IMG/VR virus record: IMGVR_UViG_3300012089_000001
Location: 18,493 to 82,492 of that record
From: a virus
Direction: 5' to 3' (one strand)
DNA: 64,000 nt
Below are positions 17,944-28,510 of the stretch, piece by piece. How positions within the stretch are numbered: position 1 is the stretch's first letter; every line of letters starts with the position of its first letter. The translations under genes were made by a program, and so were the position numbers. The notes below the pieces were generated by a model. It saw nothing but the letters and a program-made list of their open reading frames with translations. It searched no databases and was not told the origin of the DNA.

Positions 17944-18237
17944 ATGAAAAGTTTAATACAAGGTCGTGTAAATCAAGTACTGGGACCTTTTGACACATCA
18001 GACCTTTTGGGAGTAAATGGAGCAATTACTAAAGCAGTCCCGGAGAGTGACCCTCCGCGATTAATAAAGCTTGGTATACAAGCAAGTGAAGGAACAATAG
18101 TAAATATTAATGGTGCCAATATAAGGATTGGAAAAACTGGTATATATGAATTAGATAATACTGTGCAAATTATTTCGCTATATTTTCCAACACCAGGCGC
18201 AACAGATGCTAGTACTATAGTTGACTTTATATATTAA
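17944..18237 (+). CDS. Small beta-rich protein, possibly virion-associated
   Basis: AAGGAG RBS; IRIGKTGIYELD; first gene of the plus-strand cassette. Confidence 0.65.
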   Translation: MKSLIQGRVNQVLGPFDTSDLLGVNGAITKAVPESDPPRLIKLGIQASEGTIVNINGANIRIGKTGIYELDNTVQIISLYFPTPGATDASTIVDFIY

Positions 18238-18250
18238 AAGGAGGGAAGAT

Positions 18251-18571
18251 ATGACAAGTTTTTATGGAAATTTAGGCGGAACAGGTGGCGGTGGTGACGG
18301 TGGAGTTACCAATCATGGAGATTTAACTGGCCGCAGCTTACCAAATCAACATCCAGCTAGTGCTATTCAGCTTAGTGATGGAACTAATGTTAATGATAAA
18401 ATAAATAGTAATACAACAACTATAGCTGCAATGCAAGCAGAAGCAACAGCTAAATGGATTATTTTAAATGATGTTGAAACTCGTAGTAGAGAAAACGCAG
18501 ACGATATTTCAGACCTGCAATCTACTATTGGTGACTTAAATAACAGATTGGAGGCAAGGCTAGATGGCTAA
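18251..18571 (+). CDS. Gly-rich/coiled-coil protein, possibly fibre-like
   Basis: GGTGGGGDGG, HGDLTGRSLPNQHPASAI, C-terminal heptads; GAGG RBS. Confidence 0.6.
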   Translation: MTSFYGNLGGTGGGGDGGVTNHGDLTGRSLPNQHPASAIQLSDGTNVNDKINSNTTTIAAMQAEATAKWIILNDVETRSRENADDISDLQSTIGDLNNRLEARLDG

Positions 18572-19991
18572 AAGAACTTTATCTGAAAACATATTACAAG
18601 CTATTGATGATTTTGATGATATTCAAGCAGCTATCATTGAAAAAGGCGTAAGTGTTTCCAAGGATACTGCTACTAGTGAATATGGTAATAGCATACGAAA
18701 AATAAAGACTAATGGTGGGACTATATCTAACAAAGATGTTAATTTTTATGATTATGATGGAACATTATTGTATTCTTACACCATAAGTGAAGCTAACGCG
18801 CTTACATCTTTGCCAGATGGGCCTGTTCATGATAAATTATTATTTCAAGAATGGAATTATTCTTTAGTACATGTTAATGCAACAACTATTCCCATTAATG
18901 TAGGAGCAATATACACTACAAAAAGCGAAGCAAGTGAATTTGATTTGACATTTACAGAGATTACTGGGCTAAGTACAGATATGCGTATTTATAATAGCAC
19001 AGCAGGAAGCATAATTAATATAGATTGGGGCGATGGAACAGTTGAGGATGCTACTTCAACTACTATCGGAACAAAAACTTTTACTCATACATATTCTAGT
19101 ATGGGATCTTATACAATAAAAGTAGATAGTATTGGTAATTATTATTTTTGGGGAGGCTCAGGTTTGCCGAGTAATATGTTTAACATATCTCCCAATTATA
19201 CTTGTACAGAAGTTAGACTTGGTGATAGATGTAGATATGTTGATTCTTATTCATTTCGAAATTGCTATAACTTGACTAGCATATCAATACCAAGTGGTGC
19301 TACACTTATTGGTCAGAATGCTTTTTATCAATGCTACAGTTTAATTACTATATCAATACCAAACAACGTTACAAGTATTAATGCTAGTACGTTTCGACAA
19401 TGCTATAGTTTGACTACTGTATTAATGCCAAGCAATATTACAAGTATTGCGGAGAATGCTTTTTATCAATGTTACAATTTGACTAATATATTAATACCGG
19501 CTAATGTTATAACTATTGGTAACTATGCTTTTTATCAATGTTATAGTTTGAGTAACATATCAATACCAAATGGTATTACAAGCATTAGCAATTATATATT
19601 TCAACAATGCTATAATCTTTCCAGTGTATCATTACCAAATACTATTACAACTATTGGTAATTATGCATTTCAATATTGTTATAGTTTGACTAGTATATCA
19701 ATACCAGATAATATTACGAGCATTGGTAGTAGCGCGTTCTATCAATGTTATACTCTGGCTAGCATGTCAATACCAAGTGGTGTTACAAGTATTGGTGGTA
19801 GTGCATTTTATCAATGTTATATTATTAAAAATTATCTTATTAAAGCTACTGAGCCGCCAACACTGTCAACAAATGCATTTGATGGCATCAATGATGGTTG
19901 TATAATATACGTCCCACCTGGTACGCTTAAAGATTATCAAAGTGCTACTAACTGGACAGCTTATGCAAGTTATATGCGGGAATGGGAATAA
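18564..19991 (+). CDS. BspA-type leucine-rich repeat (LRR_5) protein
   Basis: About 9 repeats of 23 aa, consensus FxxCxSLTSISIPxxITSIGxxA, then PPTL...F...IYVP. Confidence 0.88.
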   Translation: MAKRTLSENILQAIDDFDDIQAAIIEKGVSVSKDTATSEYGNSIRKIKTNGGTISNKDVNFYDYDGTLLYSYTISEANALTSLPDGPVHDKLLFQEWNYSLVHVNATTIPINVGAIYTTKSEASEFDLTFTEITGLSTDMRIYNSTAGSIINIDWGDGTVEDATSTTIGTKTFTHTYSSMGSYTIKVDSIGNYYFWGGSGLPSNMFNISPNYTCTEVRLGDRCRYVDSYSFRNCYNLTSISIPSGATLIGQNAFYQCYSLITISIPNNVTSINASTFRQCYSLTTVLMPSNITSIAENAFYQCYNLTNILIPANVITIGNYAFYQCYSLSNISIPNGITSISNYIFQQCYNLSSVSLPNTITTIGNYAFQYCYSLTSISIPDNITSIGSSAFYQCYTLASMSIPSGVTSIGGSAFYQCYIIKNYLIKATEPPTLSTNAFDGINDGCIIYVPPGTLKDYQSATNWTAYASYMREWE

Positions 19992-19994
19992 AAA

Positions 19995-20031
19995 TAAAGA
20001 CCTTTATAAAATTATAAAGGTCTTATTTTTT
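19995..20031. terminator. Bidirectional terminator between convergent genes
   Basis: AAGACCTTTATAA...TTATAAAGGTCTT with A and T flanks. Confidence 0.75.
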
Positions 20032-20519
20032 TATAACAAATATTTTATTACTGGGTAGTATTTTTCTTTTAGCGCATCTGTTAATGTTTCCTCTTGCTCA
20101 AGATGATCTTTCATATCCGCCTGTTTAACGTAGAACGCCGCCTGCGAATAAAATCCGCCTTTTGTTGCAGTATCTCTAATTTTCTTAATATATGTTTCAT
20201 AAGAATCAACTTTTTTATCATGAGTAAGTAATTCTAAAGCTTGTTTCAAATAAGTTATATTAGAACCACTATCTATTGTATTAACAATAGTATCAATGTT
20301 GCAGTCTGTATCTTCTATCATGTCATGTATTAAAGCTAGAGAAAAAATTAATTCTCGCTCTATAATAGACATATAGACAGTTGTAGGACTATTAAAAACA
20401 TTGATTGCTACCCTTAAAGAGTGATCAAACTTTTCCTTTGGTAAATGTTCTTTACATAATATTATTGTTTCCATTATATTTACCACTTTATTATACCTCC
20501 CATTCGTTAAAAGGTTCAT
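20031..20519 (-). CDS. HD-domain phosphohydrolase, RelA/SpoT-HD/Mesh1-like
   Basis: HSLRVA, IHDMIEDT, LLTH, VKQADMKDHL. Confidence 0.75.
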   Translation of the reverse strand: MNLLTNGRYNKVVNIMETIILCKEHLPKEKFDHSLRVAINVFNSPTTVYMSIIERELIFSLALIHDMIEDTDCNIDTIVNTIDSGSNITYLKQALELLTHDKKVDSYETYIKKIRDTATKGGFYSQAAFYVKQADMKDHLEQEETLTDALKEKYYPVIKYLL

Positions 20520-21314: not shown

Positions 21315-21388
21315 ATTTTATTATCACTCCTTTTCTTTCTATAATAATTATATCATAATTTTATATAAAAATAAAGCTAGAATTTCTT

Positions 21389-22576
21389 CTAGCTTTTCAA
21401 ATAAACTCCATCCCTTGTTTGTGAATAAGAATGATATTTCATAGGATACTTTGCTACAAAATCTTCTTGATATTCATTCATATGTGTAAAAGCAAGATTT
21501 TCTTTGATAATAAATTTTCCTTTAGCAGACAAAATATCTTTATTTACTCTTTTATTTAAATCCATGAAATTCAATTTCCCATATCTTAAATGATCTTGAA
21601 AAGGATTAGGAACATTTGTCATATCAACCATATTATCATAAAACTCTGTCTTATGACATTCTGTATCAAATCTTCCTACACCATGTCTTGTCATATAGGT
21701 ACGAGAAACATAACAAGCTTCTACTATCCCAGTATAATCCAGTCCATTTAAAATTTCTGTGGGATTAGAAAGGCCCGTATTACTCGGAGACAAGTGCGGA
21801 AAATAATCTCTATTATGCTGATCTAATAACAATCCTTGACCATTTTCAAAAATAACTGAATCATATCTATTTAATACTTCATCATTTGCAAAAGAAGAAT
21901 TGTTCATCATAAAGGAAAAGTCATCAATGAAATTAACTATTGCGGCATCACTAAGTAAAACATTAGTAAATTCAACAGAAATATTTTTTAATCCAAAGAT
22001 ATCAAATCTTTTTGGAACGTAGCTTTTTCTTATAAAATTAAGAAAATCTACTTTACTTATATAACTTAACTGATTAAATTCTCCAACAGTCATTCTAAGA
22101 GGGTTGTATTCAAAGGTGTTTACAAAATCAATCCCATTTTGATTTCTATATAAGGTTTCAAATATTCCAGATCCGCAACTACCATGCTTACCAGATCCTC
22201 GATCAATTTCAAGAACCTGATTAATAAGCATATCGTAGATAGTAGTTAATTTACAATTTGGATTAATATAAATTTCTGGCATTTTAAGATGTCTACTCAA
22301 ACTTTCATATTCTTTTCGAAAGTACGCGGGATTGACAATAAATTCCTTTGCGATATAGGTTGCTGCACCTACATAAGTTCCAGAACCAAAATGCTTAAAT
22401 ACATGACGATACCCCTCTGGAGTAACAACAGTGTGTCCTCTTTGCGCGCCACCATTATGCAAAACAACAACACAAGATTCATTGGCTTCTTTTGCTTTAT
22501 CCGCAAAATAATCAGTCATTAATCCTTTTCCTTCATCACCAAAATTTGCTCCTATAACTACTTTAATATCTTTCAT
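21389..22576 (-). CDS. Divergent adenylosuccinate synthetase (PurA)-like ligase
   Basis: GANFGDEGKG, NGGAQRGHTV, FENGQGLLLD, TYMTRHG; canonical TTGRxRR loop absent. Confidence 0.85.
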   Translation of the reverse strand: MKDIKVVIGANFGDEGKGLMTDYFADKAKEANESCVVVLHNGGAQRGHTVVTPEGYRHVFKHFGSGTYVGAATYIAKEFIVNPAYFRKEYESLSRHLKMPEIYINPNCKLTTIYDMLINQVLEIDRGSGKHGSCGSGIFETLYRNQNGIDFVNTFEYNPLRMTVGEFNQLSYISKVDFLNFIRKSYVPKRFDIFGLKNISVEFTNVLLSDAAIVNFIDDFSFMMNNSSFANDEVLNRYDSVIFENGQGLLLDQHNRDYFPHLSPSNTGLSNPTEILNGLDYTGIVEACYVSRTYMTRHGVGRFDTECHKTEFYDNMVDMTNVPNPFQDHLRYGKLNFMDLNKRVNKDILSAKGKFIIKENLAFTHMNEYQEDFVAKYPMKYHSYSQTRDGVYLKS

Positions 22577-22593
22577 TTTATTCCTTTCTTATA

Positions 22594-23496
22594 TTAAAAT
22601 GTAATTAAGTTACTTTCTGCAGAAGCAATTGCCAAATCATTAATTGCATTCTTTACAACTACAGAAGTAGATCCATCCCAAGAGTTAACTACAGTGTTAA
22701 CATCCTTTCCCGCGTGAAGCTCAAGAATAGAAACTATTACTTCTGGAATGTTATCAACATTTTCAACCATGATGGCATTTTTACCCAGTAGATTTCTCCA
22801 ACTTCCAGTTACATCTTGATTATAACAAGGTTCAACAATTAGATGATATACCTCGTACATTCGAGATACTTCTGTAAGTACTTCTTCCGCAGTCAAATCT
22901 TTTTCAATATCATCTCCAATAAATGTCTCAATCTGACTGGCCGTTAGTTCAGGATGGCAACATTCATCACCAATAGTAAATAAATAACCCTTTTGGCCTC
23001 TCTTATCAAAATTATCAAGTTTTGTATGTCTTGCCGCAAAATACCATGGTAAAGCATAAGATTCTCCGCCATTGCCACCGCCGCGCTTCTCAAAATAAAC
23101 ATCATTAAGCTGTTCTGCAATACGAATGTCTGATTCAAATTGTGTCACCTGTAGCGGCCTAGAGTCGCATCTTGCATCTCCAAAAGCTACAAACATGATT
23201 TGTGGATCTTCCACAGGTTTTCTTTCAAAAATTTCTGTAATTAAAAGATTTAATTTTTTACTGATTGTTTCCAAAACAGATCCCATACTTCCGGTCACAT
23301 CAAGACCTAGTATAATTGGATGAGAGTTAGGATGATCTGCACTATCACAACTTTCTCTAAATTTCACTCCTTTTGGATTAAAATCCGCTCTAATATCAAC
23401 TGATTTATATAAATCTTTTGCTGTTGATTGTGCTGTCATTCCTCTTGCATTTGAATAAGTAACCCAATCTTTGTTAGTCCAACTTCCTCCGCCCAT
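22594..23496 (-). CDS. von Willebrand factor A domain protein
   Basis: LGLDVTGSMG MIDAS, GGGNGGESY, FTIGDE. Confidence 0.85.
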   Translation of the reverse strand: MGGGSWTNKDWVTYSNARGMTAQSTAKDLYKSVDIRADFNPKGVKFRESCDSADHPNSHPIILGLDVTGSMGSVLETISKKLNLLITEIFERKPVEDPQIMFVAFGDARCDSRPLQVTQFESDIRIAEQLNDVYFEKRGGGNGGESYALPWYFAARHTKLDNFDKRGQKGYLFTIGDECCHPELTASQIETFIGDDIEKDLTAEEVLTEVSRMYEVYHLIVEPCYNQDVTGSWRNLLGKNAIMVENVDNIPEVIVSILELHAGKDVNTVVNSWDGSTSVVVKNAINDLAIASAESNLITF

Positions 23497-23510
23497 TTTA
23501 TTATCTCCTT

Positions 23511-24512
23511 TTAATTTTTTATATTATAAATTTCTTGTTTCGTTGTTTTTATCTTTATAAATCTTCTTTCTCCAAAACTTTTATCAAGTGCGGAATCCCA
23601 TTTATTTAATTCTTCTACTGAATTATCAAGGGTGCCAGAGTTAAGAAAATTTTTAAAGTCGTCTGGTAAATCTTTTTGATATGCTCTTCCAAAAGCTTTT
23701 ATTGATTCAATATCTGTTATAGATTTAGATATCTTCTCTGATTTAACTTTTGGTGGCATTAAATTGAAAATATTTTTTGTAGTTCCAATCATTGTTTCGT
23801 CTTCTTTTGTTGTAAACCACCAACCGCCATATAAGCAAATTGAATGAAATTTTGGACAAACGAACAAGTTATCGATCTCTATTCCATTGTTAACTAGATT
23901 GTTAAATTTAAGAAAACATCCTATATTTAATAGTCTAGTAATCATCCAGGCAAGATGCTTTGGCGGAACATCTCCTTTAAAGACATTATCAATAAAACAT
24001 CTTAATGGATATACGTCCGCGGGCTTGCTTATTAAAATTATGTGACTAGTGTTTGTGTCATATTCAGCTTCGATTGCTGGAAATAATTTCTTATAAAAAT
24101 CCTCCATCTTCTTATCTTCATATTTTAATTCATTTATTTGTTTGATATAATTATTATAATATATTTTTTTATTAAAATCAAATAAATAAATAATATGCTT
24201 GTCGCATACATAATACTCACCCAATTCAAAAGTATGATGATAGAAATAATTAATTTTAAGAGTTGTATTGGTTTTTGTTTTAATCTCCAAATAATTAGAT
24301 TTTTCCCAAATATTTTTATGAATCATATCTAATGCTTTATCATATAGCTGATTAAGTTTTTGAAAAGCATCCACTGCGCGCGGATCTTGGTTAGAATCCG
24401 GATGACAAATTTTACTAAGCTTTCTGTAATCTCTTTTTAAATTTTCTTCACCATTTGAGAATATATCTCCAACCTTTACATCTGAATCAAGAATTTTGTC
24501 AAGAAAATCCAA
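23511..24512 (-). CDS. J-domain protein fused to a degenerate protein-kinase-like domain
   Basis: YRKLSKICHPD..AFQKLNQLY; HLAWMITRLL..LVNNGI..DNLFV..GGWW. Confidence 0.75.
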   Translation of the reverse strand: MDFLDKILDSDVKVGDIFSNGEENLKRDYRKLSKICHPDSNQDPRAVDAFQKLNQLYDKALDMIHKNIWEKSNYLEIKTKTNTTLKINYFYHHTFELGEYYVCDKHIIYLFDFNKKIYYNNYIKQINELKYEDKKMEDFYKKLFPAIEAEYDTNTSHIILISKPADVYPLRCFIDNVFKGDVPPKHLAWMITRLLNIGCFLKFNNLVNNGIEIDNLFVCPKFHSICLYGGWWFTTKEDETMIGTTKNIFNLMPPKVKSEKISKSITDIESIKAFGRAYQKDLPDDFKNFLNSGTLDNSVEELNKWDSALDKSFGERRFIKIKTTKQEIYNIKN

Positions 24513-24515
24513 GCA

Positions 24516-25049
24516 TCACACCTCCTTCAAAAGAATAAACTTTTCTTTAAATTTATTAAACTGTTTTAATAATTTTTCATTTTGATATCGCCCAAAATCA
24601 AATATTGGAACATCATATTCTCTTGCAATTCTTAACGCTTGGCCAGTCCCACCATTACCTTGGCCGCGCAACGTCCAGCATAAAACAAAATTACATGGAT
24701 CATCGAGATTTATGCCAAGTATTTGATAGGAATTTCGCATCATTAATAACTTTCCAGCTTGTGACAATCTATCCCAAGCCGGATGAAATTTTTCAGCGAT
24801 ATCATAGGCCTCTCTTTCTCTAATTATAAGATTTGAATCTGATCCATTGAAATTTTTCCACGGAAGATAGATTTCTTTTTTACCAGAAGCTTTATCGCAA
24901 CCAAATTCAAATGCACTGTCCGCGCCAAAAGCATGCCCAGATCTAAGAATAAAATCTTTGCGAGCTAGACTGTGTGCAACTTGTTTCATATAATTCTGTA
25001 TAAATATAGGCGTATCTCTACTACCTATTCCAGCATAGCTATTACTCAT
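24516..25049 (-). CDS. SLOG superfamily (DprA/Smf-like) protein
   Basis: YAGIGSRDTP, LRSGHAFGAD, RNSYQILG, GGTGQA. Confidence 0.75.
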   Translation of the reverse strand: MSNSYAGIGSRDTPIFIQNYMKQVAHSLARKDFILRSGHAFGADSAFEFGCDKASGKKEIYLPWKNFNGSDSNLIIREREAYDIAEKFHPAWDRLSQAGKLLMMRNSYQILGINLDDPCNFVLCWTLRGQGNGGTGQALRIAREYDVPIFDFGRYQNEKLLKQFNKFKEKFILLKEV

Positions 25050-25869
25050 AATATTTACCTCTTGTGTATTCATTATACACAATATAATTCATATAAGAAT
25101 AAATAAGTCTATCTATTAATTCTTTATCTTTTGGTTCTTTAGCAGAATATTCATTTGTAAGCATTTCCATTTGATTTAAATAATTATCCACTTCACTTTC
25201 TATATTTCGTCTATTATGATCAAGACCATTAATATAATTTCCTTCTTTTAAAGAGATAATTTTTTCTCTGATTCTAGTTCCTGGAATCATCTTAATACAA
25301 CTTTTATAAGATTGGTGCTCAGGAAATATACCAGATGCTCTAAGATCAAGGTAGCGCATTACATGTCCAAAGTACAGAACTTTTCCAAAACTCTTTTCTG
25401 TACCATATGTTTTACTATGCTTTGCCTGACCATAAAGAGATTTAAACATAACTGGTAAATTACATCCAGCAATATCTTCTTTATATAAGTTAAAACAAGA
25501 ATTCCAAACTGTATATAAAATCTCATTGTCTCCAAAAACTACATAATCAGTGAATAAAATCTCTAAAAAGTTAATGTTTTGATTCTTCAATCCCTTTTCA
25601 GCAAAGTGTCTAATATCTTGGATAGAGCAAATTTCACCATTCTCAAAATGATAATCATAAGAATAGAATTTTTTACCCAGTAGAAAATCCTTTTTATCTG
25701 GAATAATTAACATTTTAGAGTCAATATCAGAATTTTCTGTGTCTAAATTATAATTCTGGCTTCCATAAAGGAAAATCCCAATTATGTTAAATTCATCAAT
25801 ATGCAGTTTGTTTATAATTTCATCCATCTGTTCTTCTAGCCTTTTTAAAATTTTCTCTTTTTTATCCAT
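25042..25869 (-). CDS. Pol-beta-like nucleotidyltransferase (RlaP/Nuc-transf-like)
   Basis: LYGSQNY.L....SDID; NINFLEILFT. Confidence 0.75.
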   Translation of the reverse strand: MDKKEKILKRLEEQMDEIINKLHIDEFNIIGIFLYGSQNYNLDTENSDIDSKMLIIPDKKDFLLGKKFYSYDYHFENGEICSIQDIRHFAEKGLKNQNINFLEILFTDYVVFGDNEILYTVWNSCFNLYKEDIAGCNLPVMFKSLYGQAKHSKTYGTEKSFGKVLYFGHVMRYLDLRASGIFPEHQSYKSCIKMIPGTRIREKIISLKEGNYINGLDHNRRNIESEVDNYLNQMEMLTNEYSAKEPKDKELIDRLIYSYMNYIVYNEYTRGKYYE

Positions 25870-25870
25870 T

Positions 25871-26224
25871 TTATTCTCCTTGATTAAAATAATAATGATA
25901 TCTGATATGTTCTCCATGTCTTTCACAATAAAATTCTACTGCCAAGAACTCCTCAACTAGATCGCGACAATGGATATGATCATAAGAGTCTTCCTTATGA
26001 CCCCTCATGACACATATATCACTAGCGACATCTAAAGGAGAACAAAGTTCAAAAAAACCTTCTAACATCAATTTTTTTGCTTCATCTTTAGTAATTTCTT
26101 CCTCTTCTAAAAGAAAAAATATATATAGAATATAAATCTCTCTTGGAATATAATATTCGTCTATATTATCTCCTAGACTAAGATCTATATCCCAAATTAT
26201 ATTTGAAAAATCTTTATTTTCCAT
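25871..26224 (-). CDS. Hypothetical acidic protein
   Basis: ORF downstream of a promoter. Confidence 0.55.
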   Translation of the reverse strand: MENKDFSNIIWDIDLSLGDNIDEYYIPREIYILYIFFLLEEEEITKDEAKKLMLEGFFELCSPLDVASDICVMRGHKEDSYDHIHCRDLVEEFLAVEFYCERHGEHIRYHYYFNQGE

Positions 26225-26959: not shown

Positions 26960-28510
26960 TTAAACAACTTCAGCATAGCGGTCGCTGTCCAACACATTTA
27001 ACATCAGATCTACTCCGGACTTGCCGCTTAATAGAGACTTGAATGTGCTAGTAGAGAATCCAGATACAAAAGAAACAGTGTTATCTGCCTTCTGTAGAAA
27101 TGTATCCTGGCGAGCTTGTAAATTCCAAAATACTAGCTTTGGCATTTCATATCCCGCGGCATTCCATTTCTTTCTCATGGATTCCATCATTGTATCAGCG
27201 TTCTCTCTTGTCCATGCATTTCTGCAATTGTTACTCCAGCCATTCCAGCGACTCCAGTGATCTCCTCCAGTACAGTTATCAATCTCCATGTCGCTGAGAA
27301 CAACAATTGTATTAGGTAAATCAGACTGAGACAAGTGATGCTTTTGCGCAGTAGTCAATACAAGATCAAAAGCAGATTCAAGGTTAGTATTTTCTACAAT
27401 AGAATTCTTATAGATCTTACTAGCCTTATCCACAAAATCAATTCCTGTAATTTCAACAAGAGAAGGACTTGATGAAAATGTTAAGAAGTGATCTTTGTAT
27501 GGCCCGCTTAGTCTTTCTGCACAGTACATCGAAAGCGCAATAGCTGGAAAAATTGGAGAATTGGCGTCTGATCCGGCCATTGATCCAGAAGTATCACACA
27601 TACATAAGAAACTTCCTTCATTGCCCTCAAAGTAATCTGGTACATTCTTCCAATATTTATTTATCATAGCCCGCTCAGTTTGTCTATCTGAGCGCTCTAA
27701 GCCATTTATATAACGGTTATCACGGTCATGAAAGATAGCTTTGTGAACTATTTCATGAACGAAGAGATCTTTTGCATTTACTTCAGTATTTTCATCCTTA
27801 GTAAATGCCTCATATTTCTTGGCAATAATATCTCTGCGCGCGAAGGCATTGCGATATTTAAAGCCAGCCTTAGAAGGAATCTTATCAAACTCAATTTCTT
27901 CCCAGCGTCCCTCTGACATTAACTTCTCAAGAACATTGATCTTTGTTCTTAGTTTAGTTAAAATCTTTCTGTAGCTCTTGTGTGAAAGACGAAGTGATTC
28001 TCTGGTCTTGAAACCAAGTATTTTTGTTTCCTTGCTAGATGCGTTTTCTGATTTCAGCCATTTTCCAAGCAAGCTTGGAGTTTCACACTGCATATCAAGG
28101 ATAAGCTGATTACCAAGAAACTCAAACATCTCTTTCTCAAGAGAAGTATCAACTAGGCAGTAGTAGTCATCCCAGCGACCCATATTGCTAATCTGTGCCA
28201 TATTTCTGCGGACGGTGTCTGGTTCATTTTTAGCTAGCCAGTTCAGAACAATTCTAAAGAATCTGCGCTCGCCTTGCCCGCCACGAATATCCCTTAAATA
28301 GAACAAACATTTCATTGCATATTTTTCATTTGCTCTGAACGCTTTCTGAAAAAGAGAAATACAATCGCTTTCATCTCTAGTTCTATATGCCCCACCAAGA
28401 GCAAAAAGATCTAGAACAGGGTTGAGGCTTGACTTATAAGCCAATCCACCATTCTCCGTAAGTTTCATGTTTGTTTCTGCTTTCAATCCATTAATTAAAT
28501 TTCCCATCAT
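26960..28510 (-). CDS. DUF2828-type TROVE/Ro60-like protein with C-terminal vWA domain
   Basis: TENG..AY.S, RDIRGGQGER, GRWDD, KWLKSEN, CDTSGSM MIDAS, TNLE.AF, SDMEID, FWNL, VSGFS. Confidence 0.85.
   Translation of the reverse strand: MMGNLINGLKAETNMKLTENGGLAYKSSLNPVLDLFALGGAYRTRDESDCISLFQKAFRANEKYAMKCLFYLRDIRGGQGERRFFRIVLNWLAKNEPDTVRRNMAQISNMGRWDDYYCLVDTSLEKEMFEFLGNQLILDMQCETPSLLGKWLKSENASSKETKILGFKTRESLRLSHKSYRKILTKLRTKINVLEKLMSEGRWEEIEFDKIPSKAGFKYRNAFARRDIIAKKYEAFTKDENTEVNAKDLFVHEIVHKAIFHDRDNRYINGLERSDRQTERAMINKYWKNVPDYFEGNEGSFLCMCDTSGSMAGSDANSPIFPAIALSMYCAERLSGPYKDHFLTFSSSPSLVEITGIDFVDKASKIYKNSIVENTNLESAFDLVLTTAQKHHLSQSDLPNTIVVLSDMEIDNCTGGDHWSRWNGWSNNCRNAWTRENADTMMESMRKKWNAAGYEMPKLVFWNLQARQDTFLQKADNTVSFVSGFSTSTFKSLLSGKSGVDLMLNVLDSDRYAEVV

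Follow-up and report, generated by a model that had tools for sequence, protein, structure and literature searches.

We describe a three-gene operon of a large gut phage, found in a window of 64,000 nucleotides (the whole stretch of DNA that was analysed), which encodes a J-domain pseudokinase, a vWA protein and a PurA-like enzyme. The explanation that we prefer overall, and to which we give about an even chance of being correct, is that the operon represents a widespread module in which an NTP-dependent ligase, with an acceptor other than IMP and an amine other than aspartate, works with a vWA protein and a DnaK-recruiting J-pseudokinase on a nucleotide related to NAD or ADP-ribose. For the enzyme itself, an NTP-dependent ligase with non-IMP and non-aspartate substrates, linked to NAD/ADP-ribose nucleotide metabolism, is the most likely identity. 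The two names under which it is filed in databases, 'adenylosuccinate synthetase' and 'PurZ', both fail tests at the level of residues and of scores.

We show that the J-pseudokinase, vWA and PurA-like genes form the 3' end of a single transcription unit. ORF calls and translations place all three on the minus strand (Table 1), with gaps of 14 nt (J-kinase/vWA) and 17 nt (vWA/PurA-like), in agreement with the spacing of less than 20 bp given in a preliminary description of this DNA. Reading of the sequence finds a ribosome-binding site ahead of every gene (GGAGG, AAGGAG or AAAGGA), with GGAGG standing 8 nt upstream of the J-pseudokinase start at 24512. A terminator-like hairpin overlaps the stop codon of the PurA-like gene; the consensus scan of the region found 10 such sites against 2.1 expected.

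Table 1. Features of the operon, in positions of the window.
Feature	Position	Strand	Remarks
J-kinase-like ORF	24512..23511	-	333 aa, TTG start
J domain (aa 1-65)	24318..24512	-	HPD at aa 37-39
Protein-kinase-like domain (aa 66-333)	23511..24317	-	neither catalytic Asp nor DFG Asp present
vWA-like ORF	23496..22594	-	300 aa
vWA-fold protein with MIDAS	22594..23496	-	invariant N-terminal Met-Gly, family block LQVTQFESDIRIAEQL
PurA-like ORF	22576..21389	-	395 aa
Putative PurA-fold NTP-dependent ligase-like enzyme	21389..22576	-	rebuilt acceptor and amine pockets
Terminator-like hairpin	21373..21396	-	10-bp stem then T run (consensus scan); closes operon

The operon is confirmed as a real unit by a gene order whose recurrence far exceeds chance: in 80 bacterial loci we found the PurA-like gene 77 times, the vWA gene 76 times and the J-kinase gene 69 times, in constant order, and in 80 viral loci 74, 76 and 45 times, respectively, with the qualification that loci of one genus are not independent, so that fewer separate events underlie these counts than they suggest. 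The pair of vWA and PurA-like genes is present in about 220 cultured phages, among them every cluster C mycobacteriophage sampled, and also in 247 contigs of IMG/VR and the genomes of at least 583 bacterial species; the phage records with a PurA-like gene (232) and with a vWA gene (219) fall into identical phage groups. The conserved core, which the preliminary description had missed, is the vWA and PurA-like pair, with the J-pseudokinase as a frequent accessory; the triad of that description stands as a unit of the same order in bacterial and viral loci, though not with the J-pseudokinase as an obligate member. No J-pseudokinase was detectable in Vibrio and Rhizobium phages that carry the pair, the proteins that Vibrio phiKT1024 and Rhizobium Y65 encode upstream of vWA were rejected as J-kinase homologues (hhalign probability <1%), and a tblastn search of the window J-kinase against cultured phages gave no match. 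An apparent fusion of the J-kinase and the PurA-like enzyme (P0158) proved to be an in-frame deletion chimera of J-kinase aa 1-226 and the PurA-like sequence from about aa 120, lacking both the vWA protein and the P-loop. Around the triad of a related gut phage contig (L089) no conserved flanking genes were found. When a complex of three chains was predicted (the pseudokinase domain, the vWA protein as the scored partner and the PurA-like enzyme), a control in which the PurA-like chain was replaced scored nearly the same.

To map the residues of the PurA-like family, we aligned 196 members against E. coli PurA, whose numbering is used here. Judged by this alignment, the enzyme keeps the residues by which PurA moves the NTP gamma-phosphate to the lactam oxygen: D13 and K16 of the P-loop, H41 and Q224 are retained in 195-196 of the 196 members and correspond to D14, K17, H48 and Q247 in the window protein, where GDEGKG occupies aa 13-18. 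The substrate pockets show a different pattern. T300, T301, R303 and R305, which contact aspartate in PurA, have not been retained, bearing out the earlier claim that the aspartate-binding loop had been replaced; the counterpart of the TTGRRRR loop is 4 aa shorter and reads FQ(D/G)xL-RYG, with a single Arg, and aa 320-333 of the window protein read TNVPNPFQDHLRYG. Among the contacts of the IMP 5'-phosphate, N38 is replaced by Gln and T129 by Cys (194 of 196 members), R143 of the partner subunit is not conserved, and T239 is the sole contact retained, as Ser in the window protein. Family-invariant substitutions comprise I126H, T128S, T129C, N38Q, V273H and G298Q, and a block D318-x-T-N...Q327 is conserved. 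The preliminary description had overlooked that the pocket for the IMP ribose-phosphate is rebuilt (T129C, I126H, V273H, loss of R143). It had also proposed dependence on GTP, which is not borne out, as the guanine-specifying (N/T)KxD motif (K331, D333) reads THMN in the window, with H and N at the two positions; of the 196 family members, 173 have H in place of the Lys, and the Asp position is occupied by N in 130 and by D in 62. Because the residues for the IMP ribose-5'-phosphate and for aspartate are replaced by new, family-invariant ones, the enzyme is predicted to be neither PurA nor PurZ.

An ordinary adenylosuccinate synthetase would be an auxiliary purine-salvage enzyme that makes adenylosuccinate from IMP, aspartate and GTP, with neighbours unrelated to its function. 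The Pfam and NCBIfam PurA models are indeed the best matches of the enzyme (Adenylsucc_synt PF00709 at 1.6e-30, over profile positions 1-280 of 416 only), E. coli PurA is its best solved relative and the four phosphoryl-transfer residues are retained; but the contacts to aspartate and the 5'-phosphate contacts T129 and R143 are lost, the scores fall far below the cut-offs (NF002223, 89.9 bits against 402; TIGR00184, 76.8 against 395.55), a full-length normal purA is also present in 5 of 5 bacterial carriers, there is no coupled purB, and the gene is strictly linked to that of the vWA protein. We consider this identity very unlikely. Still less can be said for a PurZ-type enzyme, which would make a precursor from which the 2-aminoadenine (Z) of a modified phage genome is formed; we regard this identity as extremely improbable. 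The name is attached to phrog_1211, which the enzyme matches, and to relatives in RefSeq phage records, and an HD-domain gene lies 0.9 kb downstream of the operon. However, the enzyme has Asp where PurZ has Ser (GSTGKG in phiVC8 PurZ), so that the preliminary description was right to exclude PurZ from the retained GDEGKG; its score with the PurZ model NF038379 is 43.7 bits, where the cut-off is 300, the family forms a clade of its own on the tree with PurZ far off, and it is common in bacterial chromosomes under NrtR. The downstream HD protein gave no alignment with phiVC8 DatZ, its best solved match being a weak one to Mesh1 (E 0.047), and the Z-genome reading was rejected since this protein is not DatZ-like. 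The suggested link to phage DNA modification is likewise not upheld, given the lack of a DatZ homologue and the presence of the family in bacterial chromosomes.

The vWA protein has no match in a search of Pfam and matches phrog_2971 at 1.5e-60. Its AF2 model (pLDDT 93.5, pTM 0.92) has the vWA fold, with integrin I-domains, the ANTXR2 vWA domain, BatB, Ku80 and Sec23/24 as the top Foldseek matches (E 1e-6 to 1e-5). The MIDAS consists of D66-V-T68-G-S70 (DVTGS, aa 66-70) and G176-D177-E178; D66 and S70 are invariant in the family and T68 and D177 conserved in at least 90%, so that the intact MIDAS described earlier is corroborated. By pairwise identity the vWA protein is the most conserved of the three: 61% to the L005 copy, against 48% for the PurA-like enzyme and 42% for the J-kinase, and 36%, 27% and 19%, respectively, to Mycobacterium phage Sebata. 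A new observation is that the vWA partners start with Met-Gly (249 of 257 full-length sequences; 131 of 139 representatives at 50%), within an N-terminal consensus MGxG(S/T)(W/F); alignments that span gut phages and mycobacteriophages show both M1 and G2 as invariant.

The third protein has a J domain at its N-terminus (Pfam DnaJ 3.2e-8, 34 bits against a cut-off of 27.8), the family profile gives matches of about 1e-7 to numerous PDB structures of DnaJ, and each of 28 close relatives retains HPD. The remainder is modelled by AF2 with a pLDDT of 94.5 as a bilobal kinase fold, matched by Foldseek to PKA, PAK1, Aurora and PLK1 (probability 1.0, TM 0.45-0.5). It is homologous (E 8e-9) to a mycobacteriophage Sebata protein annotated 'Ser/Thr kinase', which itself matches Pfam Pkinase at 1.7e-9. 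Motif mapping places N-N-G of the window protein (in NNGIEIDN, aa 208-215) at the HRD position, where the mycobacteriophage homologue has A, and GGWW (aa 229-232) at the DFG position, where the Asp is retained only in the mycobacteriophage homologue; no conserved beta3 Lys was found in the N-lobe strands of the aligned J-pseudokinases. The protein is hence predicted to be catalytically dead, a pseudokinase, and its architecture is as first described, an intact HPD joined to a kinase-like fold with replaced catalytic loop and DFG.

In bacteria the family is tied to NrtR and to NAD and ADP-ribose genes, and in phages to islands of RNA repair or of NAD metabolism, ties that the preliminary description had missed. 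The ADP-ribose sensor NrtR is encoded next to the operon in 33 of the 80 bacterial loci, in three different arrangements, and bacterial copies of the operon adjoin genes of NAD salvage or of ADP-ribose removal. Five Clostridium loci contain Prs-like, PncA-like, NAMPT and PARG genes in one array with the operon, and in three bacterial loci DUF4291, a family described as ART-like (PMC12522546), is placed between nrtR and the operon. Most other recurrent neighbours in the bacterial loci are local, unrelated genes. Several phages carry PARG, ARH, NADAR, NMNAT-Nudix, NadE or NAMPT near the module, and RNA-repair genes (TROVE, RlaP, Thg1, RNA ligase, Pnk-HD) lie within 10 kb of it in 24 of the 80 viral loci, with Pnk near the mycobacteriophage copies. 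The window operon comes after an NTase gene, with TROVE/DUF2828 about 2.4 kb upstream and a cluster of tRNA and Y-like RNA genes at about the same distance. The upstream DprA-like and NTase proteins gave no informative match when compared with solved structures. Since the 92-kb phage record is about 57% complete and a search of it for the NAMPT, Nudix and PARG families found all three absent, the link of the module to NAD rests on its relatives.

These neighbourhoods admit other accounts of the module. RNA repair, in which the enzyme would repair a damaged purine of tRNA or of some other RNA, by re-amination or otherwise, or would supply a repair nucleotide, beside the phage Ro60-like/Y-RNA, Thg1, RlaP and RNA-ligase genes, has on its side the viral loci with such genes, the setting of the window operon and the Pnk of mycobacteriophages; yet bacterial copies have NrtR and NAD-salvage genes as neighbours instead, accessory islands of large phages hold many mixed functions, and no RNA-binding domain is recognisable in any of the three proteins, so that we judge this unlikely. 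The module could also make a toxic or signalling nucleotide as a conflict effector, induced in bacteria through NrtR upon ADP-ribose during infection and captured by phages for counter-defence or superinfection exclusion. A self-contained cassette with variable surroundings across phyla and phages, under a repressor-type sensor, would be consistent with this, as would the reading of ARG-centred, Nudix-TF-controlled systems with vWA chaperones as conflict systems (PMC9503650). We nevertheless find it improbable: PADLOC 2.0 models gave no match with an E of 0.01 or better to any of the three operon proteins, the three show strong sequence conservation, in contrast to conflict genes, which evolve fast, and the Clostridium cassette is in line with NAD-salvage genes. 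In a further account the ligase is directed at a protein, the alpha-amine of the N-terminal Gly of vWA (after removal of Met) taking the place of aspartate, so that a nucleotide-tagged vWA protein would be handled by the J-pseudokinase and DnaK. The near-universal Met-Gly start, its invariance from gut phages to mycobacteriophages, the rebuilt amino-acid pocket of the enzyme and the conservation of vWA above its partners would all fit; however, the proposal is pure inference and lacks precedent in the PurA family, and a conserved N-terminus could equally mean folding, partner binding or turnover. We think it quite unlikely.

The preferred explanation, a ligase of NAD- or ADP-ribose-linked nucleotide metabolism with two accessory proteins, has several parts. 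On a substrate that is not plain IMP, the enzyme would activate an oxygen, to which it would join a non-aspartate amine, while the vWA protein may bind the enzyme, or the enzyme's target, through its MIDAS metal. The J-pseudokinase would act as a scaffold and recruit the host Hsp70 (DnaK) to the complex, a role that might parallel that of the MoxR ATPases of enzyme activases, which work for vWA adaptors. Judged by the bacterial and phage neighbours, the substrate may be a nucleotide derived from NAD or ADP-ribose, and in the phage the module could sustain nucleotide or NAD-linked metabolism under host attack by NAD+ depletion, by ADP-ribosylation of targets or by RNA damage. Against this speaks the retention of D13 and Q224, as in chemistry on a purine lactam, although an ADP-ribose-like substrate would offer no obvious oxygen of that kind. 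More specifically, the PurA-fold enzyme might perform an undescribed ligation of NAD/ADP-ribose chemistry, either an NTP-driven re-joining of ADP-ribose with nicotinamide or some other amine by way of a 1''-phosphoryl intermediate, or a covalent nucleotide-tagging of the invariant vWA N-terminal Gly; with the DnaK-recruiting pseudokinase this would be a further answer to NAD+ depletion or ADP-ribosylation in hundreds of large phages and many NrtR-controlled bacteria, a tentative and on balance doubtful proposal. If the substrate is indeed derived from NAD or ADP-ribose, the module would add a new reaction to the contest between phages and bacteria over NAD+, and this would also account for a J domain and a vWA adaptor accompanying an enzyme of metabolic type. 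Because cultured, genetically tractable carriers exist (Bxz1-type mycobacteriophages, Vibrio phage Va1, Clostridium beijerinckii), its role is directly testable.

A full-text literature search found no description of the vWA/PurA-like/J-pseudokinase module or of its function, and the module is best placed by comparison with systems that share some of its parts. With PurA (EC 6.3.4.4; E. coli structures 1ADE and 1KJX) the enzyme shares the fold, GDEGKG with D13 and K16, GH41T, Q224 in GQG.LLD and the TRHG.G motif, but it lacks the insert of about 60 aa after TKLD, has H and N/D in place of K331/D333, and coexists with a true purA while always being paired with a vWA gene. PurZ, the succino-amino-deoxyadenylate synthase of Z-genome phages such as phiVC8, likewise belongs to the PurA superfamily in a shortened, phage-encoded form, and its PHROG name is held in common; its P-loop, however, has Ser-Thr for the Asp-Glu kept here, and phiVC8 lacks a vWA or J-kinase partner just as the module lacks a DatZ partner. 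The MoxR AAA+/vWA adaptor activases include CbbQ-CbbO, NorQ-NorD and the Mg-chelatase BchI-BchD. By analogy, the module would resemble them in having a MIDAS-bearing vWA gene beside the enzyme presumably served and a means to recruit an ATP-driven remodeller; it differs in that it has no AAA+ gene, and the J domain on its pseudokinase would recruit the host DnaK/Hsp70.

Bacterial copies of the module adjoin nrtR, Prs-like, NAMPT and PncA genes, as in NrtR regulons (Rodionov 2008, PMC2330246). Phage copies reside in genomes or islands with NAD-salvage genes, as in phage NAD+ reconstitution by NARP1, NARP2 and NARP3 (Sci Adv 2026, PMC13464706), the last of these consisting of PnuC and NadR, although no protein of the module belongs to any NARP enzyme family. 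The ARG-centred, Nudix- or WYL-TF-controlled systems with vWA 'peptide-binding chaperones' (Iyer, Burroughs, Aravind et al. 2022, PMC9503650, section 3.8), in whose text PurA, adenylosuccinate, DnaJ, J-domain and pseudokinase were searched for and are not mentioned, likewise place a vWA protein in one neighbourhood with a Nudix-HTH sensor and enzymes that remove ADP-ribose, but those systems are built around an ADP-ribosylglycohydrolase and phosphatases.

We took 196 members of the PurA-like family, which come from gut metagenomes, cultured phages and 80 bacterial loci, and mapped their residues onto E. coli PurA; the role of each residue in that enzyme is assumed to be as its established structural literature describes. 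The phosphoryl-transfer residues D13, K16, H41 and Q224 (E. coli numbering) are retained in 195-196 of the 196 members. The substrate pocket carries a set of family-invariant changes (N38Q, I126H, T128S, T129C, V273H and G298Q), R143 is absent, and a conserved block appears that is new to this family (D318-x-T-N...Q327). The preliminary description had held that the aspartate-binding loop is replaced, and across the map the TTGRRRR loop is indeed four residues shorter, with a single Arg left. As read from these aligned residues, the phosphoryl-transfer site is intact and the substrate site is conserved yet different, the pockets for IMP ribose-5'-phosphate and aspartate being rebuilt with new family-invariant residues. 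The guanine-specifying K331 and D333 have become H and N/D, so that GTP is not assignable as the NTP.

That the protein is an ordinary PurA is highly improbable. The PurA Pfam model does match, solely over profile positions 1-280 of 416, and with 89.9 bits the window protein falls far short of the NCBIfam cut-off for PurA (402); a full-length canonical PurA is also encoded in all five bacterial carriers examined. A PurZ is less probable still: the NCBIfam score against PurZ is 43.7 bits (cut-off 300), and the PurZ of the Z-genome phage phiVC8 has Ser-Thr at the site where the window protein has Asp-Glu. A quick maximum likelihood tree places the PurA-like proteins in a clade to themselves (SH-aLRT 90), separate from both canonical PurA (98) and PurZ, which sits on a long branch. 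The tested features disfavour both identities, in line with the earlier view that the enzyme is not PurZ.

Searches of Pfam and NCBIfam with the second protein gave no match, and its predicted structure (AF2 pLDDT 93.5) has a vWA domain fold that matches integrin I-domains, ANTXR2, BatB and Ku80. The MIDAS, described earlier as intact, is conserved (D66-x-T68-x-S70 and D177). The protein also carries an invariant block, LQVTQFESDIRIAEQL, and 249 of 257 full-length relatives begin with Met-Gly (consensus MGxG(S/T)(W/F)). It is the best conserved member of the triad, as it has the highest identities both to the copy of the module at L005 (vWA 61%, PurA-like 48%, J-kinase 42%), and to that of the cluster C mycobacteriophage Sebata (36%, 27% and 19%, respectively). 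Some cluster C mycobacteriophages have the vWA gene as a single 595-aa ORF annotated 'HNH endonuclease', as in gp259 of Mycobacterium phage Sauce, and two-piece matches to the vWA protein in other cultured phages are of the same kind. In Sauce an in-frame insert of ~255 aa lies six residues ahead of the MIDAS Asp (RKGY/C...SSN/CIFIGDE, slashes marking the junctions), with a Cys at each junction and a weak match to a Hint module (E 1.6e-3); it is probably an intein that sits in the best conserved strand of the vWA protein.

The first protein combines a J domain (Pfam DnaJ, 3.2e-8; its family profile matches many DnaJ structures), in which the HPD is invariant among 28 relatives, with a remainder that adopts a protein-kinase fold (AF2 pLDDT 94.5). 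The best Foldseek matches of the latter are PKA, PAK1, Aurora and PLK1, the single best being an oncogenic DnaJ-PKA chimera. The protein is homologous (E 8e-9) to a cluster C mycobacteriophage product annotated as a 'Ser/Thr kinase', which matches Pfam Pkinase; in the alignment of the two, the HRD Asp position is Gly here and Ala in the mycobacteriophage protein. Instead of the DFG Asp there is GGWW, a motif kept in gut-phage and bacterial members, and we saw no conserved beta3 Lys in the family alignments. The intact HPD and the replaced catalytic loop and DFG had all been proposed beforehand, and the ORF translations contain every motif quoted then, each in its place. By sequence the protein is a pseudokinase, and an unorthodox activity is possible. 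In two Lachnospiraceae copies the J domain has given way to a zinc-ribbon-like CxxC...C segment at the N-terminus, which indicates that the chaperone-recruiting head is exchangeable.

The three genes form a conserved unit, as had been suggested, in bacteria as well as in phages. A vWA relative is encoded in at least 583 GTDB species genomes, and among the best 80 GTDB loci the J-kinase, vWA and PurA-like genes occur in 69, 76 and 77, always arranged in this order, with few other genes common around them. IMG/VR holds 247 contigs with the module, the corresponding counts in the best 80 loci being 45, 76 and 74, and related gut phages share the triad while their flanking genes differ. Cultured phages carry the PurA-like gene in 232 records and the vWA gene in 219, in the same phage groups (~200 cluster C mycobacteriophages, 10 Rhizobium phages, 6 Vibrio phages and one gut phage). 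The vWA gene is an obligate neighbour of the enzyme and the J-pseudokinase a frequent one. The pair of vWA and PurA-like genes is the core; no J-kinase homologue is detectable in the Vibrio and Rhizobium phages, and the zinc ribbon stands in for the J domain in a few bacterial copies. The metagenome protein P0158 (498 aa) is the product of a natural in-frame deletion that fused J-kinase residues 1-226 to the PurA-like protein from about residue 120; with the vWA gene and the P-loop lost, it represents a broken copy of the module.

The window is a 64-kb part of a 92-kb IMG/VR virus record (CheckV completeness estimate 57%, GC ~30%) with nearly all genes on the minus strand. A Shine-Dalgarno-like sequence precedes every triad gene, and the J-pseudokinase starts with TTG, 3 nt past the stop of the DprA-like gene. 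Given the terminator-like sites on either side (table), the triad is probably the 3' end of a ~5-kb transcription unit shared with the nucleotidyltransferase (phrog_388, 1e-13; weak PADLOC PDC-S09 match) and the DprA-like Rossmann protein (phrog_768, 4e-53; Pfam DprA below cut-off). In L089, a contig from a related gut phage, neither of the two lies beside the triad. A small HD-domain protein two genes downstream (phrog_990, 6e-9) was considered as DatZ and rejected as not DatZ-like; its best solved-structure match is weak (E 0.047), to Mesh1/HDDC3 of the (p)ppGpp/NADPH phosphatase family. The only plus-strand block of the region, where GC skew flips, encodes, among others, a protein of 475 aa whose many leucine-rich-type repeats contain Cys (NCYSLTSISIP...) and which is probably exposed at the surface or binds a receptor.

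Features of the window and of related loci
Feature	Coordinates	Strand	Remark
Triad ORFs (333, 300 and 395 aa)	24512-21389	minus	intergenic gaps 14 and 17 nt
Hairpin with T-run	21396-21373		overlaps stop codon of PurA-like (last) gene
Closest upstream terminator-like sites	26402-26373; 26955-26926
DprA-like and nucleotidyltransferase genes	24516-25926	minus	upstream of triad, apparently co-transcribed
Nucleotidyltransferase	25042-25926	minus
TROVE/DUF2828+DUF7788, Ro60-like protein	26960-28510	minus	~2.4 kb upstream of triad
HD-domain protein	20031-20519	minus
Plus-strand gene block	17944-19991	plus
Sauce gp259	L105:1501-3288
Zinc-ribbon pseudokinases, Lachnospiraceae	L067:8936-9943; L080:4788-5837
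Region upstream of triad, 720.9-kb contig	L006:1-8000

NrtR is a Nudix-wHTH repressor of NAD genes that responds to ADP-ribose. It is the commonest bacterial neighbour of the triad (33 of the best 80 loci), lying upstream on the same strand, divergently or downstream. In five Clostridium loci the triad is in line with genes for Prs-like, PncA-like, NAMPT and PARG proteins, and three Lachnospiraceae loci have, between nrtR and the triad, DUF4291, a family described as ART-like and as neighboured by Nudix, Macro and ARH genes (PMC12522546). Phage neighbours of this type include PARG (L089), ARH (locus L091), NADAR (Vibrio), NadE (L006), an NMNAT-Nudix protein with a phosphoribosyltransferase (Rhizobium), and NAMPT in five IMG/VR loci. 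Upstream of the triad on L006 are NAD synthase, a histidine phosphatase, a weak RyR-domain protein, an inosine-uridine nucleoside hydrolase and MazG, a set that resembles an accessory island for nucleotide and NAD functions. RNA-repair genes, however, are the commonest neighbours in phages (TROVE/DUF2828, RlaP-type NTases, Thg1-like, RNA ligases and Pnk-HD; 24 of the best 80 IMG/VR loci), and TROVE/DUF2828 lies within 10 kb of the pair in 11 of those 80 and in Vibrio phage phiKT1024. The window, with its TROVE/DUF2828 and nucleotidyltransferase genes, follows the RNA-repair arrangement. No member of the NAPRTase/NAMPT, Nudix or microbial-PARG Pfam families was found in the 92-kb record, so the NAD/ADP-ribose link rests on relatives.

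We propose that the enzyme may be an NTP-dependent ligase joining a non-IMP acceptor to a non-aspartate amine, that the MIDAS adaptor, and host DnaK drawn in by the J domain, would serve it by analogy with MoxR-vWA activases, and that its setting could be NAD/ADP-ribose-linked nucleotide metabolism; for this reading of the module as a whole we see about an even chance. The specific chemistries that can be imagined are all speculative: ADP-ribose might be re-ligated with nicotinamide, ammonia might serve for an amination, the enzyme might tag the N-terminal glycine of the vWA protein, or it might act on RNA.

The module is without published description in the literature that we searched. Text searches of the Aravind-group surveys (jumbo phages, NAD-ADPr systems and NTP-dependent conflict systems) found PurA, J-domain and adenylosuccinate absent, and DnaJ only in unrelated contexts. 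Among named systems, NARP3 consists of PnuC and NadR. The nearest system in those surveys to the J-pseudokinase/vWA/PurA-like module is ARG-centred, controlled by a Nudix transcription factor and equipped with vWA chaperones (PMC9503650).
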